From the NCBI GenBank assembly GCA_031459535.1, contig JAVKIJ010000015.1, positions 1-45,902 on the forward strand: DNA of 45,902 nt, written 5' to 3'. Position numbers and translations under genes: made by a program. Origin of the DNA: Candidatus Fervidifonticultor quintus. Its GTDB lineage: Bacteria; Sysuimicrobiota; Sysuimicrobiia; Sysuimicrobiales; Humicultoraceae. Below the pieces are notes generated by a model that was given only the letters and a program-made list of their open reading frames with translations, was not told where the DNA came from and made no database searches. This document shows, piece by piece, positions 2,638-31,946 of this stretch. Position 1 is the first letter of the stretch; every line of letters starts with the position of its first letter.

Positions 2638-3108
2638 GTGGAGTTCATCAGCCCCACACAGGGGCGCGTGACCTTCGATCAGATGTTCAAGCAACTGGTC
2701 GGCTACATGAAGAGCGAACCCGACCAGCACTACCACTTGATCATTGGTACCGACTCCCTGCTCTCCGACGACACCACCTTCGTGACCGCCGTGATCATCC
2801 ATCGGGTCGGTCACGGCGGCCGGTACTTCTACCGGCGCTTCCGCAACCGGAAGATCGAGAGCCTGCGCCAGCGCATCCTCTTCGAGACGTCGTTGTCCCT
2901 GGAGACCGCCCACCTGATCACCACGGAGCTGGCCCGCAACGGCTATTCGAAGCTTCCCGTGGAGATCCACCTCGACGTGGGGAACAACGGCGAGACCAAG
3001 CGGATCGTGCGTGAGGTGGTGGGCATGGTCTCTGGCTCGGGGTTCAGCCCGGTGATCAAGCCGGACGCCTACGGCGCCACCAAGGTGGCCGACAAGCACT
3101 CGAAGTAA
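2638..3108 (+). CDS. Ribonuclease H-like YkuK family protein (DUF458)
   Basis: IIGTDS, FVTAVIIHRVGHGGRYF, EIHLDVG..GET, IKPDAYGATKVADKH. GTG at 2638 with a GGAGGG RBS is preferred over the ORF-track start at 2428. Confidence 0.88.
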   Translation: MEFISPTQGRVTFDQMFKQLVGYMKSEPDQHYHLIIGTDSLLSDDTTFVTAVIIHRVGHGGRYFYRRFRNRKIESLRQRILFETSLSLETAHLITTELARNGYSKLPVEIHLDVGNNGETKRIVREVVGMVSGSGFSPVIKPDAYGATKVADKHSK

Positions 3109-26751: not shown

Positions 26752-27801
26752 TTGACTGACCGGGAGCGCATCCGGCTCACGTCCATGGTCGCCTGCGCCG
26801 GCTGAGCGTCCAAGCTGTCGCCCGGCGACTTGGCGTACGTGTTGCGCCGTCTTCCACAACCCAGCGACCCGAACCTGCTGCTCGGGCTCGGAACCGACGA
26901 TGACGCGGCCATCTACCGCCTTACGGACGAGCTGGCCATCATCCAGACGGTGGACGTGTTCACGCCGGTGGTGGACGACCCCTACCAGTACGGCGTCATC
27001 GCCGCCGCCAACGCTCTCTCCGACATCTACGCCAAGGGCGGCCGGCCGGTGCTGGCCCTCAATGTGGCCGCCTTCCCGCGGAAGCTATCGCTCGACATCC
27101 TCGGGGACATCCTGGCCGGCGGCGCAGACAAGGCGAAGGAGGCGGGGGTGCTGATCGTCGGCGGACACTCGATCGACGATCCCGAGCCCAAGTACGGCCT
27201 GGCCGTCACCGGCTTCGTCCATCCCGCCAGGTTCGTGGCCAACCGCGGCGCGCGACCGGGCGACGTGATCTACCTGACCAAGCCCATCGGCATCGGGGTC
27301 GTGACGACCGGGATCAAGCAGGAGAAGACCGTCGATGCGCTGGCCGCGGAGGCGATCCGTGTCATGAGCATCCTCAACCGGGCGGCCTCGGAAGCCATGA
27401 TGGAGGTTGGCGTCCACGCGGCGACCGACGTGACAGGATACGGGCTGCTCGGGCACCTCCATGAGATGGTGCTGGGCGACGCGGTCACCGCGCGGGTCTG
27501 GGCCGGTGCGGTGCCGGTGCTGGCTGGCGCGCGGGAGCTGGCCGGGCAGGGCGCGGTCGCCGGCGGCACCGCCCGCAACCTGGAGTGGCTGCGGGACAAG
27601 GTCCGCTGGGCGCCGGGCATTGACGAAGTCACGCAGATCCTCCTGGCCGACGCACAGACCTCGGGCGGGCTGCTGCTGGCGGTGCCGCCGGACCGCACCG
27701 GCGCCCTCGAGACCGCCCTCCGGCGCCGGGAGGTGGAGACCATCGCGCGGGTCGGTCAGTTCCTGCCCCGCACTACGGTCGCCATCGAGGTCGTCGAGTA
27801 A
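26752..27801 (+). CDS. selD: Selenide, water dikinase containing selenocysteine (UGA at 26803-26805, codon 18)
   Basis: TTG start after a GGAGGT RBS gives MTDRERIRLTSMVACAG-U-ASKLSPGDL, in frame with the ORF at 26830; DDAA, QTVDVFTPVVDDP, ANALSDIYA, TDVTGYGLLGH, DAQTSGGLL. Confidence 0.95.
26806..26836 (+). promoter_or_regulatory. Candidate bacterial SECIS hairpin
   Basis: Immediately 3' of UGA: CCAA(GCT)GTCGC-CCG-GCGAC-TTGG, extendable by GCG/CGT. Confidence 0.6.
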
Positions 27802-27819
27802 GGCGCCCCCGGCCTCGCA

Positions 27820-29334
27820 TCAGGCGCCCAGCGCGCCTTCGGCGGCGCGGAGGATGGCTCCGGACTGGACCAGCTCCATGGCCTGCGCGAAATCCCCGGC
27901 GAGGACCCGGTCGTCCTCAAGCGAGGGGACCGCGTCCCGCACGCAGCGGTAGGCGGCAGCCGTGCCCCGGCCGAGGGCGAGTGTGTTCTCCCCCATTTCG
28001 ATCCCCTGGGCGGCAACGACCAGTTCGATCGCGAGGACCTGCTGGCTGTTCCGCAGCACAGCGGCGGCCTTGCGAGCGGCATGGGCTCCCATGCTCACGT
28101 GGTCCTCCTGGTTCGCGGAGGTGGGAATCGAATCCACACTGGCCGGGTGGCACAACACCTTGTTCTCGGAGGCGAGGGCGGCGGCGGTGTACTGCGCCAG
28201 CATGTACCCCGACTGCAGGCCGCCGCGGCCGGTGAGGAACGCCGGCAGCCCCGAGAGGTAGGGATTGACCAGGCGCTCGATCCGCCGCTCGCTGATGGTG
28301 GCCAGTTCAGCAACGGCCATCGCCGCGTAGTCGAGCGCCAGGGCCAGCGGCTCGGCGTGGAAGTTGCCGCCGGAGATGACCTCGTCCTGGTCGGGAAACA
28401 GGAGCGGGTTGTCGGTGGCGCTGTTGATCTCCACCGTGAGGACTTCGCGCAGATGCGCCAGCGCCTGCCGGACGGCGCCGTGGACCTGCGGCATGCAGCG
28501 GAGCGCGTAGGCATCCTGCACCCCGGGGTGGGAGGATCGGTGGACGCGCTCGCTCCCCTGAAGCAGCAGCAGCAGGTGACGGGCGCTGGCGATCTGGCCT
28601 GGGTGCTGGCGCGTGAGGTGCAGCAAGGGATGGAATGCGCGATCCGTGCCCCGCAACGCCTCCAGACTCAACGCACCGGCCACATCGGCGATCAGAGCCA
28701 GGCGTTCGGCCCCGAGCAGGAACAAGACCCCGATCGCGCTCACAAACTGCGTGCCGTTGATGAGCGCGATGCCCTCCTTGGCTTCCAAGACCAGGGGCTG
28801 GAGCCCGGCCTCGCGCATCGCCTGGCCGCCGGGCAACCGTGCCCCTCGGTACGTGGCCTCGCCCTCGCCGATGACCACCAGGGCCAGGTGGGCGAGCGGT
28901 GCCAGATCGCCACTCGCGCCCAGTGATCCCTGCTCGGGGATGACGGGGTGCACGCCCCGCTCGAGCATGTCTGCCAGGGTCTGGATGACCAGGGGCCGGA
29001 CGCCCGAGTAACCCAGAGCCAGGGCGTTTGCCCGAAGCGCCATCATCGCCCGCACCACCGACTCCGGCAGCGGCGCACCGACCCCGGCGGCGTGCGACCG
29101 AACGATGTTGCGTTGCAGCGCCGCAGCGTCCTCGGGGGAGATCCAGACCGTCCGCAGTTCGCCCACGCCGGTCGAGACACCGTAGACGGCCCGACCCTCG
29201 CGGAGGATGCGCTCGACCATCTGGCGGGATCGCGCCACCCTCTGCAGCGCACTGGGAGCCACGGTCACCGCCGCACCACCTGCCACCGCTTCCACGGCTT
29301 CCGGGGTGAGCGTGCATCCATCGATCTCGACCAT
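27820..29334 (-). CDS. hutH: Histidine ammonia-lyase
   Basis: VYGVSTGVG, IVRSHAAGVG (SH, His-type), MIO motif GSLGASGDLAPLAH, QDAYALRC, SGGNFH, ANQEDHVSMG; ATG 29334 with GGAGG RBS. Confidence 0.95.
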   Translation of the reverse strand: MVEIDGCTLTPEAVEAVAGGAAVTVAPSALQRVARSRQMVERILREGRAVYGVSTGVGELRTVWISPEDAAALQRNIVRSHAAGVGAPLPESVVRAMMALRANALALGYSGVRPLVIQTLADMLERGVHPVIPEQGSLGASGDLAPLAHLALVVIGEGEATYRGARLPGGQAMREAGLQPLVLEAKEGIALINGTQFVSAIGVLFLLGAERLALIADVAGALSLEALRGTDRAFHPLLHLTRQHPGQIASARHLLLLLQGSERVHRSSHPGVQDAYALRCMPQVHGAVRQALAHLREVLTVEINSATDNPLLFPDQDEVISGGNFHAEPLALALDYAAMAVAELATISERRIERLVNPYLSGLPAFLTGRGGLQSGYMLAQYTAAALASENKVLCHPASVDSIPTSANQEDHVSMGAHAARKAAAVLRNSQQVLAIELVVAAQGIEMGENTLALGRGTAAAYRCVRDAVPSLEDDRVLAGDFAQAMELVQSGAILRAAEGALGA

Positions 29335-29356
29335 GGCGGCCTCCCGCATTCCGCTG

Positions 29357-29395
29357 AAAACATGGGAGCCACGCCGCGCGGGCAGCATGGCTCCC
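29357..29395 (-). terminator. Intrinsic terminator/attenuator in the hutH leader
   Basis: Minus strand 14-bp stem GGGAGCCATGCTGC-CCGC-GCGGCGTGGCTCCC followed by ATGTTTT. Confidence 0.85.
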
Positions 29396-29441
29396 TCGTA
29401 TCTCGCGTCTCTGAGCCGACCCGACTCCTCGCTGACCCCTT
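29395..29441 (-). promoter_or_regulatory. Two putative HutP-binding sites (three NAG triplets spaced by 4 nt)
   Basis: AAG-GGGT-CAG-CGAG-GAG (29441-29425), 13 nt spacer, GAG-ACGC-GAG-ATAC-GAG (29411-29395); the last G is the first base of the terminator stem. Confidence 0.75.
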
Positions 29442-29510
29442 CTCGCGCAACCCCACGATTCCTGCCGGCGGCCCGCGCCGGGCGCGCGCAGGCTGGCAGG
29501 CGGTGGCGGG

Positions 29511-29966
29511 TTAGAGGTGCACGATGCCCAATCCGACCACCTCGTGCTCGTTACCCTTCACGGGCTGGCCAATGGTGCCGTAGAGGGCGACCGCGATCCA
29601 GGTCGTCTGATCACCGGGCAGCCGCGGCCCGCGGACCGCGGCAAACCTCAGCCCGACCGTGCGCAGCAGCGTCCCCAGGGCCAGTTGCCCTCGACCGACG
29701 CCGTGGAGCGCCTCGATGATGGCGTGGTAGAGGGCGTGCTCCTCAGCATATTCGGCACTGATGAGACCCTCGCGAGAGGCCGCAGTCTCCACGGCGGCAA
29801 TGACCTTCTCAATGTCCATGGTCCCGACGCGGCCTGCGACGCTGCGGTACCCACTCAGGCCGGCCAACACGGTCTGGGGATCGTCGGCGAGCACGGCCAG
29901 GAGCGCCACGCGGCCTATGGTGTCGGCCCGAATCCGGACCTCGCGGTTCACGACAGTCTCGCCCAC
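29511..29966 (-). CDS. hutP: Hut operon positive regulator (RNA-binding antiterminator)
   Basis: IGRVALL, GRVGTMD, EEHALYHAIIEALHGV.RG, LLRTVGLRFAAVRG, WIAVALYGTIGQPVKGNEHE, closely matching Bacillus HutP; alternative GTG start at 29951. Confidence 0.93.
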   Translation of the reverse strand: MGETVVNREVRIRADTIGRVALLAVLADDPQTVLAGLSGYRSVAGRVGTMDIEKVIAAVETAASREGLISAEYAEEHALYHAIIEALHGVGRGQLALGTLLRTVGLRFAAVRGPRLPGDQTTWIAVALYGTIGQPVKGNEHEVVGLGIVHL

Positions 29967-30814
29967 CTGGCCCCGACGAACAAGTGCTGCTGGGCGTAGC
30001 CGGCCAGAGCGCCGAACCGCTCACGGGCCCAGGCGCCAATGGCGCGCGGTGTCTGCGACCGGCCGTGGAAGTACCAGCGCTCGACCGCCCGCCTGACCCA
30101 CACGTCCACGGGGAACGCCTCGTCGTGGCCCAGGCCGAAGAGGAGCACGCACTCGGCTACCTTCTCGCCGACACCGGGCAGTTCCAGCAGGGCCGATCGG
30201 GCCTCCCCGAGCGGCAATCTGGAGAGCGCGTCCAGGTCCAGGGTGCGGTCGGCCACCAGGCGCGCGAGGTCTCGCACGTAGCGGGCCCGGTAGCCGAGTG
30301 CGCACCGGCGCAGCGCCGGCAGGCTGGCCTCGGCGAGCCGCGCGGGGCAGGGGAACGTCCAGTCCACGGGGCGCGCCTCGCTGCCAGCGGCCCCCCCGTC
30401 CGCGATCGGCTCCCCGAAGCAACGGGCCAGCGCCTGAATGCTCATCCGGATCTTCGGGATGTTGTTGAACGCGGAGACGACGAAGGACACCAGGCACTCC
30501 CATGGATCCTGGCGCATGATCCCGATGCCCGAGGTGTGGGGGAGCAGGCGGCTGATTGGGCGCTCACGGGCGAGGGCCCCCTCGACGGCCGCCAGGGGCC
30601 GGTCGGCGCCGAGGTATCGCAGCAGGCGGCGCGGCGAGTCCGCTGATCCGCCGCACCGCACCAGCAGCCCCTCGGGCCGCTGCCTCAGCCAGACGACGCT
30701 GCCGCCCACGACGCCTCTCGCACCCCTCGGGGTCAGCACCCACCTGAAACACTGGCCGCTTCGCAGGGTGCGCTCCAGACTGTAGGGTGCGGGAACGGGA
30801 AGCGCCGCGATCAC
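29948..30814 (-). CDS. 8-oxoguanine DNA glycosylase (OGG1-type, HhH-GPD)
   Basis: TLRSGQCFRW, RQDPWECLVSFVVS.FNNI, LGYRARY, LPGVGEKVAECVLLF, FPVDVWV, AGYAQQHLF; GTG overlaps the upstream stop. Confidence 0.9.
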   Translation of the reverse strand: MIAALPVPAPYSLERTLRSGQCFRWVLTPRGARGVVGGSVVWLRQRPEGLLVRCGGSADSPRRLLRYLGADRPLAAVEGALARERPISRLLPHTSGIGIMRQDPWECLVSFVVSAFNNIPKIRMSIQALARCFGEPIADGGAAGSEARPVDWTFPCPARLAEASLPALRRCALGYRARYVRDLARLVADRTLDLDALSRLPLGEARSALLELPGVGEKVAECVLLFGLGHDEAFPVDVWVRRAVERWYFHGRSQTPRAIGAWARERFGALAGYAQQHLFVGARWARLS

Positions 30815-31437
30815 GGTTCCAGCAGCCTCGCGTCCACCACCAGCTGCGACCATGTCTCCATCTGCGGATAGGCGGCGCGCACCTCGTCGCGGGAGGCGAG
30901 CCGCCCGACCAACCGATCGGCCTCCCTGACCGAGACCTCGCCGGATGCGACGTCCACCACGTGCACCAGCCCGAAATGCACCGCGCCCACGGCGTTGTCG
31001 TCGTCGTTGAGCACGCCCACCAGCCGCACGGACCACGGCCCGCCCATCACCAGCTCCTCCCCGAGTTCCCGCCGGAGCCCGGCAGCCACCACATCGTCGC
31101 TCCCTTCGACATCTTCCCTAGCCACGTGCCCGCCCACCCCGATAGAGAAGAGCCCGCGCAGCCGGCCTTCAAGGCCGCGGTGTGTGCGCTGAAAGAGCAT
31201 GTACCGGGCACCGCTGCGGACGAGCACATAAGGGATGATCTGTTTCAGCGTCGGGTCATCTTCCACATCGCGGCGACGGCGGAAGACGCCGTACCGCCGT
31301 ACGCGGCGCAGATACTCGTCGAGCCGTTCGGTCAAGACCCCGCGGAACGGCCCGCTCCAGAACAGATCGGCGCGTGGAACGACCAGGATGTCTTCGTCCA
31401 TCTCGTCGCGGGCATGCCGGACTGCCTCCTGGCTCAC
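30811..31437 (-). CDS. Predicted Nudix-family phosphoesterase (YmaB/COG4112-like)
   Basis: EDDPTLKQIIPYV, EGRL..SIGVGGH, RELGEEL, NDDDNAVGAVHFG, METWS; alternative start ATG 31401. Confidence 0.85.
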   Translation of the reverse strand: MSQEAVRHARDEMDEDILVVPRADLFWSGPFRGVLTERLDEYLRRVRRYGVFRRRRDVEDDPTLKQIIPYVLVRSGARYMLFQRTHRGLEGRLRGLFSIGVGGHVAREDVEGSDDVVAAGLRRELGEELVMGGPWSVRLVGVLNDDDNAVGAVHFGLVHVVDVASGEVSVREADRLVGRLASRDEVRAAYPQMETWSQLVVDARLLEP

Positions 31438-31946
31438 AGCGTCCCCCGGTGGATCCGCACACCGTCTGGGAAAGGGGCCTCGGCATCCGCGTAGGTGAAT
31501 TTCGCCAGAATCACCGTACTGTCCCGGTCCCGCAGATGCGGGAGCAGCAGAGGGATGTCTGGGAGGACCGGCAGCGACGCGATCTCCTGTGGCGAGGCCC
31601 ATCGCAGCGGCCCTTCGTGAGATGGGGTGACGGTGCGGTCGGCGACCTGCGCGGAGAACAGGAAGATGGCCCAATGATCCCCGGTGGACCGTACCACCAC
31701 GGTGGCGACGCCACGGAACGCGAGCGGCGGCTCGATGCCGGCCTCTTCCCTCAGCTCGCGTCGAGCGGCGTCGAGCGGATCTTCTCCGCGGTCGAGCTTG
31801 CCACCGATGGCGTTCCACCGGCCGACGTCGGGAGGCCGTTGCCTGCAGATCAGCAGCAGGTCCTCGCCGCAGAACACGAAGCAGAGGGTCCGCAGACGGA
31901 TCGCTGCGGGACCTTCAGGATGCGGGTTCGGCCGCACGATCCCCAC
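31434..31946 (-). CDS. Nudix hydrolase, MutT/8-oxo-dGTPase-like
   Basis: Nudix box GGKLDRGEDPLDAARRELREEAG; RTLCF, WNAIGG and EGPLRW motifs. Confidence 0.85.
   Translation of the reverse strand: MGIVRPNPHPEGPAAIRLRTLCFVFCGEDLLLICRQRPPDVGRWNAIGGKLDRGEDPLDAARRELREEAGIEPPLAFRGVATVVVRSTGDHWAIFLFSAQVADRTVTPSHEGPLRWASPQEIASLPVLPDIPLLLPHLRDRDSTVILAKFTYADAEAPFPDGVRIHRGTL

Follow-up and report, generated by a model that had tools for sequence, protein, structure and literature searches.

A putative histidine-responsive HutP attenuator in front of hutH in Candidatus Sysuimicrobiota, with a conserved helix enclosing its proximal NAG site

We analyzed a stretch of 45,902 nucleotides (nt) from Candidatus Fervidifonticultor quintus (assembly GCA_031459535.1, contig JAVKIJ010000015.1, positions 1 to 45,902; hereafter the window). 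In this stretch, hutP, the gene for an RNA-binding antiterminator, lies directly upstream of hutH, the histidine ammonia-lyase gene, on the same strand, and the gap between them holds spaced NAG triplets that run into a terminator hairpin. The window has a G+C content of 69%, and the NCBI taxonomy of the congener Candidatus Fervidifonticultor quartus (G001) places the host in the phylum Candidatus Sysuimicrobiota (formerly CSP1-3). We consider it likely that the gap is a functional, histidine-responsive HutP attenuator controlling hutH, so that hutH is probably histidine-induced through HutP. The leader element itself appears to be of the known HutP type. A short helix that encloses the triplets, here called P1, is put forward as a new hypothesis with good comparative support.

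The product of hutP matched the Pfam family PF09021 with 91 bits (cut-off 25) over profile positions 2-127 of 128, and the NCBIfam equivalog NF002838 (histidine utilization transcription antiterminator HutP) with 169.2 bits (cut-off 155). Its residues 16-151 aligned to the solved B. subtilis HutP chains in the PDB (E = 2e-39), and the HALYH and EHE stretches were identical to those chains. Residues H77, H81, H141, Y73, R92 and R102 (window numbering) were invariant across an alignment of 31 HutP homologues. We take the three invariant His residues to be ligands of Mg2+, and the Tyr, Glu and Arg residues to be contacts of L-histidine. Judged by these alignments, the window protein is a member of the HutP family with the ligand-site residues kept. 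HutH scored 646 bits against Pfam Lyase_aromatic and 665 bits against the TIGR01225 equivalog (cut-off 539), and it remained under the cut-offs of the tyrosine and phenylalanine lyase/mutase models.

The layout of the leader is given in Table 1. An earlier note on this DNA had described hutP, two N4-spaced triples separated by a 13-nt gap, a 14-bp stem, ATGTTTT and about 22 nt to the hutH ATG, and each of these elements was found as placed. The same note had remarked that the list of open reading frames begins hutH inside the terminator. This was borne out, as the long frame starts from ATG 29388 in the 5' arm. Relatives align from residue 1 of the frame that starts at ATG 29334 and have GGAGG ahead of their own start, identifying 29334 as the conserved start. 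The corrected annotation therefore has hutH begin at 29334, not 29388.

Table 1. Features of the hutP-hutH locus (window positions; P1, helix closing the proximal site)
Feature	Position	Strand	Basis
hutP, RNA-binding antiterminator, 151 amino acids from GTG 29966	29511..29966	-	Pfam, NCBIfam, PDB alignment
Distal NAG triple AAG-gggt-CAG-cgag-GAG	29441..29425	-	read from sequence
Linker, 13 nt, between distal and proximal triples	29424..29412	-	read from sequence
P1 helix, 5' strand GGCUC	29417..29413	-	alignment, pair counts, register test, fold
A 3' of the P1 5' strand, invariant in the 43-leader alignment	29412	-	alignment
Proximal NAG triple GAG-acgc-GAG-atac-GAG	29411..29395	-	sequence; AG columns invariant in alignment
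Terminator hairpin, 14 pairs, loop CCGC	29395..29364	-	terminator scan, fold, RNAalifold
P1 helix, 3' strand GAGCC, bases 2-6 of the terminator 5' arm	29393..29389	-	alignment, fold
Tail AUGUUUUC (short U tract)	29363..29356	-	sequence, terminator scan
Ribosome-binding site GGGAGG, 5 nt ahead of hutH ATG	29345..29340	-	sequence; GGAGG conserved in relatives
hutH, histidine ammonia-lyase, 504 amino acids from ATG 29334	27820..29334	-	Pfam, TIGR01225, alignment of relatives
8-oxoguanine glycosylase-like (ogg-like) gene	29948..31036	-	Pfam OGG_N + HhH-GPD

Ten of the 14 pairs of the terminator stem are G-C and one is G-U; the final G of the proximal triple is also the first base of the stem, and the last U of the tail lies 22 nt ahead of the hutH ATG. 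The 66-nt leader folded to the terminator with -36.2 kcal/mol (z = -4.0), and none of 200 shuffled sequences was equally stable. The pattern AG-N5-AG-N5-AG occurred six times on both strands of the 45.9-kb window (shuffle mean 11.4), and two of these matches are the distal and proximal triples. A search of the whole window against Rfam gave no matches at gathering thresholds, and a search of 29300..29560 with E values up to 10 returned two chance-level matches to eukaryotic families only (E 6-7).

The comparison covered 161 HutP loci (labelled L), comprising the best 80 of 449 from genome contigs, the best 80 of 281 from metagenomes, and the window; L001-L003 were excluded as copies of the window, L004 and L005. 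The hutH gene was found downstream of hutP in 103 of the loci; a further 17 had it at another place in the retrieved sequence, and in 41 it was not seen. Candidate leaders, defined as a NAG triple (spacers of 4-6 nt) that precedes one hairpin and a T-rich tail, were detected in 101 of the 161 loci. Candidates were kept if they had a fold energy of -15 or lower and an A preceding the first NAG, lay within 1100 nt of the hutP stop and were distinct in sequence; from the resulting 62 leaders, the mis-registered L057, L128 and L028 were taken out. The NAG triple and terminator core was thus present in 59 distinct leaders from Bacillota and Candidatus Sysuimicrobiota. An ungapped alignment of 43 leaders with 4/4 spacers was built from 40 of the 62 and from L005, L087 and L096, overlooked by the T-tail filter. 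Complementarity was not a criterion for choosing rows. The AG columns were invariant in 43 of 43 leaders, and the N columns were variable.

The leader set of the phylum clade consisted of the window, L004, L005, L084 (L085 is identical), L007, L008, L089, L087, L091, L092, L094, L096, L010 and L006, with HutP proteins of the 13 relatives 73-93% identical to that of the window. The proximal triple kept its register in this clade with varying N, as in GAG/GAG/GAG, CAG/AAG/GAG, GAG/UAG/AAG and AAG/UAG/AAG; L010 and L006 each have one degenerate triplet. RNAalifold predicted the hairpin in all 14 leaders, with 12 pairs, four of which showed compensatory changes on both sides. We regard it as likely, with somewhat less assurance than for the attenuator as a whole, that the proximal triple is the operative HutP site.

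Three side observations concern individual leaders. The Desulfosporosinus-type leaders L036, L122, L124, L026, L066 and L028, like L010 and L006, carry one triplet of the form UUG, GUG or GGG and retain the flank helix and the terminator. In L084/L085, with a HutP 92% identical to that of the window, the NAG triple, flank helix and hairpin are present and no T-rich tail follows the stem (GCGCUUCC); this leader may terminate weakly or by other means. Finally, a CAGGAG element (CAGGAA in the window, at about 29460-29466, and in L005) recurs across the clade shortly past the hutP stop, at a distance of 40-80 nt 5' of the NAG site. Elements of this type were seen in L007, L008, L084, L087, L089, L092, L093, L094, L096 and L006, and are often followed by AAG-N6-7-YAG directly 5' of the flank helix.

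The stretch just 5' of the first NAG can pair with the beginning of the terminator 5' arm, in a constant register, with an invariant A and the 17-nt site between the two strands. In a register test, 53 of the 59 leaders had at least four consecutive pairs at this position, with helix sides of 4-8 nt. Moving the flank 20 nt upstream reduced this count to 1 of 59, and shifting the register reduced it to 0-1 of 59. In five of the six misses (L036, L122, L124, L026, L081), the detector had placed the third NAG out of register. Among the 43 leaders with 4/4 spacers, the inner four pairs were formed in 42-43, and three of these four, as well as the next pair outward, were represented by multiple standard pair types (GC 30/AU 9/GU 2/UA 1 in one column pair, UG 18/CG 13/UA 12 in another, and GC 12/UA 11/AU 2/GU 1 in a third). 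The covariation score was 0.364, compared to 0.229 ± 0.022 in shuffles, and was reached by none of 500. Cells were paired in 77% of cases, versus 28-58% when the 3' partner was slid by 1-3 columns.

The strands differ between lineages. Written as flank/5' arm, P1 is GGCUC/GAGCC in the window, GCCC/GGGC in the Bacillaceae and GCUC/GGGC in Desulfosporosinus, and clade-specific extensions remain complementary, with CUACUC/GAGUAG in Syntrophomonadaceae-type loci, GUCCC/GGGAC in L111 and UUUUGCCU/AGGCAAAA in L127. The B. subtilis template, printed as GCCC-A-UAG-N4-UAG-N4-UAG-GGGGC (PMC2425495, Methods), likewise contains GCCC/GGGC. Altogether, we estimate that these pairings represent about eight independent double changes. 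When the first 40 nt of the nascent RNA, which end ahead of the 3' arm, were folded, P1 was the minimum-energy structure in four of five leaders tested (window, L005, L027 and L037), and the full leader folded to the terminator. A helix closing the NAG site is not mentioned in the HutP passages of PMC12591593, PMC8934654 and PMC7430163; published Bacillus terminator alignments may show it.

These data suggest how the attenuator might work. In B. subtilis, HutP requires L-histidine and Mg2+, and one face of the hexamer binds three NAGs on a triangular RNA path with a 7-nt period (PMC2425495). The closing pair of P1 spans 19 nt, approximately one 21-nt turn of this path, so HutP binding would bring the P1 strands together. 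Since the 3' strand of P1 is also part of the terminator stem, P1 and the terminator base would be mutually exclusive. We therefore propose that hutP would be transcribed first, and that the HutP hexamer would bind RNA only with L-histidine and Mg2+, as in B. subtilis. During transcription of the leader, P1, a weak helix closing a 19-nt loop with the three NAGs, would form first. Without histidine, the 3' arm would displace P1, the 14-bp hairpin would form, and transcription would stop about 22 nt before hutH. With histidine, the three NAGs would be held by one face of HutP, bringing the ends of the site together, and P1 would be clamped. The clamped helix would withhold the stem bases beside the U tract, and RNA polymerase would read into hutH. 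On the comparative evidence, we give this clamp mechanism an even chance of being correct. The broader proposition, that in all HutP leaders including that of B. subtilis the NAGs sit in the P1 loop and HutP clamps an antiterminator helix instead of merely prying the terminator open, seems to us equally balanced between true and false. If P1 is clamped in this way, HutP would join the mechanistic class of RAT- and ANTAR-type antiterminators.

The published model for B. subtilis (PMC2425495) is different. Applied to the window, HutP would bind site I alone and melt the hairpin by steric "roll-over", the third NAG prying the G-C-rich stem open at its first base, and the flank helix would have no role, being a by-product or serving the accessibility of the NAG loop. 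It is compatible with the shared base between the third NAG and the stem, and in the HutP text of PMC8934654 the protein binds repeats of the terminator loop directly, unlike proteins that use a separate structured element. However, an overlap of a single base appears small against a 14-bp hairpin of -36 kcal/mol, and the B. subtilis version depends on a second site past the G-C-rich arm, which the window does not have. Nor does the model account for the complementarity that covaries and keeps an exact register in 53 of 59 leaders. We consider melting unlikely as the explanation for the window, but the most probable of the alternatives to clamping by P1.

The question of a second site was examined on both sides of the terminator base. 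In B. subtilis, site I consists of UAG triplets at U498, U505 and U512, immediately before the terminator (+515 to +553), and is essential for binding. Site II starts 17 nt beyond site I, within the hairpin, from C532; its mutations affect binding 2-5-fold, and one abolishes induction in vivo (PMC2425495). The HutP passages of PMC8934654, PMC7430163 and the 2025 review PMC12591593 describe direct binding to terminator repeats and two NAG clusters. The earlier note had spoken of a variant geometry. Because the site I UAGs of B. subtilis are also placed directly 5' of the terminator, the position of the proximal site in the window is in fact standard, and the true difference is that the window has no site II in the hairpin. 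No XAG-rich site was found inside the window hairpin, beyond its G-C-rich arm and 12-17 nt from site I, and the sole AG in 29394..29364 lies in GGGAGCC.

Triples inside the hairpin were nevertheless in excess among the 59 leaders, with 3 strict ones against 0.14 expected and 13 relaxed ones against 2.6 expected (largest shuffle 9). Going by these counts, a B. subtilis-like site II is real in some lineages and not general, and it would be an accessory of those lineages, and no requirement, if the clamp mechanism holds. In L005, a locus of congener G003, CAG, GAG and CAG cluster at the top of the terminator hairpin (3035-3060), a possible B. subtilis-like site II.

A strict N4/N4 triple upstream of the core site was present in 1 of the 14 clade leaders, that of the window, and the two congeners with 92-93% identical HutP have unrelated sequence at the aligned position. 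Among the 59 leaders, second triples upstream were not enriched (strict, 2 versus 0.54 expected; relaxed, 8 versus 6.3 expected). We accordingly rejected a geometry of two upstream sites as a rule of the HutP family. The alignment of hutP-hutH gaps from relatives, which the earlier note had proposed as a check, thus upheld its expectation of conserved NAG spacing and stem covariation for the proximal site and the stem and failed to do so for the distal triple, and the claim of two sites is not supported. Its description of a HutP-type attenuator before hutH in a G+C-rich host other than Bacillus, on the other hand, is supported by the equivalog models and by the conserved proximal triple and terminator.

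When the 99 nt 5' of the proximal site were dinucleotide-shuffled 20,000 times, a triple arose anywhere in 2.0% of trials, and a distal-type triple with an 8-30-nt linker to the proximal site in 0.57%. The distal triple is therefore modestly improbable by chance and yet unconserved, and its use by HutP seems possible but on balance doubtful. Within the clamp model it would be dispensable, although it could provide extra affinity through the second face of the hexamer. A second alternative builds on the two upstream sites of the earlier note. One face of the hexamer would bind the distal triple and the opposite face the proximal one, with the 13-nt linker spanning the two, and this dual grip would destabilize the terminator in a geometry unlike that of Bacillus. 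The exact N4 spacing of both triples and the rarity of such an arrangement in shuffles speak for this model, and a linker of 12-17 nt is long enough to reach the second face (PMC2425495). Its central element is missing from all 13 other clade leaders, however, the two congeners included, upstream second sites are not enriched in the larger set, and a linker outside the stem lends no leverage on the hairpin. We find this model rather less plausible still than melting from site I.

The assembly that contains the window (3.1 Mb, 89% complete) was scanned for further sites. It contains 8,676 NAG triples, 583 of them with an abutting hairpin of at least 8 bp, and among these 583 candidates a flank helix, a 14-bp stem and a T-rich tail were combined only in the hutH leader. 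The hutU gene lies on another contig (C106), and no NAG triple was found within its 3.6-kb locus. Control of hutU by HutP was rejected on these grounds, as the assembly has no other leader-like site either, and HutP seems to control hutH alone.

Sequence of the region could be traced in a hot-spring metatranscriptome library, in which 68% of sampled words of 28800..30000 were present. A contig of 347 nt with one mismatch spans 29181..29527; it contains the end of hutP, the two triples and the terminator, and extends into hutH. It is compatible with read-through transcripts and gives a weak hint of them; such contigs show neither ends nor levels nor regulation. Positions 29528..29662 and 28739..28853 were left uncovered by the metatranscriptome contigs, and we draw no inference from these gaps.

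The occurrence of HutP in Candidatus Sysuimicrobiota is patchy. With the HutP protein as a query, 3 of 41 related genomes were positive, namely the window's own and two of five congeners (0 of 35 in other genera). The Pfam HutP model identified 9 of 94 phylum members, spread over 5 of 31 genera; on 14 control genomes, its sole match was B. subtilis. A recent transfer of hutP from Bacillota was considered and dropped, because the nearest loci titled "Bacillota" or "Armatimonadota" turned out in a genome search to be contigs of the window's own phylum. Even within the genus the cassette is variable. In congener G004 (L168), a 70%-identical hutH lies directly behind tuf, rpmG and a tRNA gene and has neither hutP nor leader, so that one genus has hutH both with and without the HutP cassette. 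In congener G002, hutH is at a contig end, and the missing hutP there carries no information.

A further group of loci (L098, L099, L101, L102, L104 and L171), with HutP 70-75% identical to that of the window, has a gene of the opine-dehydrogenase (octopine) family immediately after hutP; in L099 this gene scored 87 bits against Pfam Octopine_DH. Neither hutH nor a NAG/terminator leader was found beside hutP in this sub-clade, where HutP may act on another target or control may work in another way. These loci and G004 also bear on a third alternative, namely that the window hairpin is not under HutP control and represents a constitutive weak terminator or an mRNA-stability element, with HutP a relic or directed to another target. 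The short U tract, the near relative L084/L085 with no T-rich tail, the hutH of G004 that does without hutP or leader, and the leaderless homologues beside opine-dehydrogenase-like genes are all in keeping with it. The hutP frame is intact and above the equivalog cut-off, however, the genome offers no other such site, and the NAG triple, flank helix and stem are retained under compensatory change across the clade. We judge a hairpin independent of HutP to be improbable, the least probable of the three alternatives.

Taken as a whole, the explanation by a HutP attenuator with one conserved site and antitermination through a P1 clamp appears to us slightly better than an even bet. Several points weigh against it. 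Ligand dependence, hexamer formation and RNA binding in the window's organism are carried over from B. subtilis, and B. subtilis needs the in-hairpin site II in vivo (PMC2425495), which the window does not have. The P1 helix of the window has just 5 bp, and the 40-mer of L004 folds otherwise. As the leaders are related (19 share GCCC/GGGC and 16 share GCUC/GGGC), the shuffle statistics for P1 overstate independence. The chance probability of the distal triple is only 0.6-2%, and because the 13-nt linker contains the 5' strand of P1, the distal triple, if used, could make wrapping around to the second face compete with P1. The U tract of the window is short (four U after AUG), which, together with the missing T-rich tail in the 92%-identical L084/L085, makes the strength of the window terminator uncertain. 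Finally, the 347-nt contig of the RNA library could derive from contaminating DNA.

The closest known system is the hut terminator of the B. subtilis hutPHUIGM operon. The protein family is the same, hutP stands directly before hutH in both, the site I position is occupied by three NAG triplets, 4 nt apart, that reach the base of an intrinsic terminator, and the complementarity between flank and 5' arm is of the same kind, being GCCC...GGGC in the printed template. In contrast to B. subtilis, the window has no XAG-rich site II in the hairpin, its triplets are GAG and not UAG, and only two genes make up the operon, hutU being on a different contig with no HutP site near it. Moreover, hutP of the window overlaps the upstream ogg-like gene and is not promoter-proximal, and the host belongs to Candidatus Sysuimicrobiota, with 69% G+C, and not to Bacillota.

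If P1 is interpreted correctly, the system would share with BglG, SacY and LicT and their RAT elements the principle of a protein that stabilizes a weak helix overlapping the 5' part of a terminator (as described for RAT in the relevant passages of PMC8934654 and PMC12591593). The HutP fold is unrelated to these proteins, however, HutP would hold single-stranded loop triplets and not a helix, and the signal would be the ligand histidine instead of PTS phosphorylation. TRAP is similar in that it forms a ring-shaped oligomer and recognizes spaced (G/U)AG triplets of a leader RNA beside a terminator/antiterminator pair (PMC3064811 and PMC2425495). Unlike HutP, which binds three triplets per face and prevents termination, TRAP binds 11 repeats, blocks an antiterminator and promotes termination, and the two folds are unrelated.

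The HutP homologues named in the HutP passages of the 2025 review (PMC12591593) are from three Bacillus species only. In the full-text collection searched, no paper joined HutP with Candidatus Sysuimicrobiota or with a comparison of HutP leaders, and the Sysuimicrobiota paper PMC11604079 contains 0 occurrences of HutP. The present results extend the HutP system beyond Bacillota and place a probable switch of this type in an uncultured thermophilic phylum. Present accounts of the HutP mechanism are drawn from a single species and depend on a second site absent from most leaders; a register-exact, covarying helix in about 60 leaders from two phyla suggests a simple mechanism for this textbook antiterminator. 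A minimal leader of about 60 nt with one binding site could also serve as a compact histidine-responsive part for thermophilic or GC-rich hosts.

Gene order varies in the wider set. In some Bacillota loci (L011, L012, L013, L016, L020, L073, L076 and others), hutH is upstream of hutP, with the regulator after the enzyme gene, and no canonical leader was detected after hutP in these loci. In the window, a G+C-rich hairpin without a U tract lies just 3' of the hutP stop (29500..29461, minus strand); it is deleted in L004 and different in L005. A scan of 27500..31500 for sigma-70-like promoters found none, a result that carries no information for Candidatus Sysuimicrobiota. An alternative hutP start, GTG 29951, gives the 146-residue form found in the protein collection, and this GTG and the stop of the ogg-like gene upstream overlap in the form GTGA. 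L004, L005, L084 and L085 have the same gene order, ogg-hutP-hutH (tblastn synteny), and hutP may thus be co-transcribed or translationally coupled with a DNA-repair gene, rather than standing behind its own promoter as in B. subtilis.

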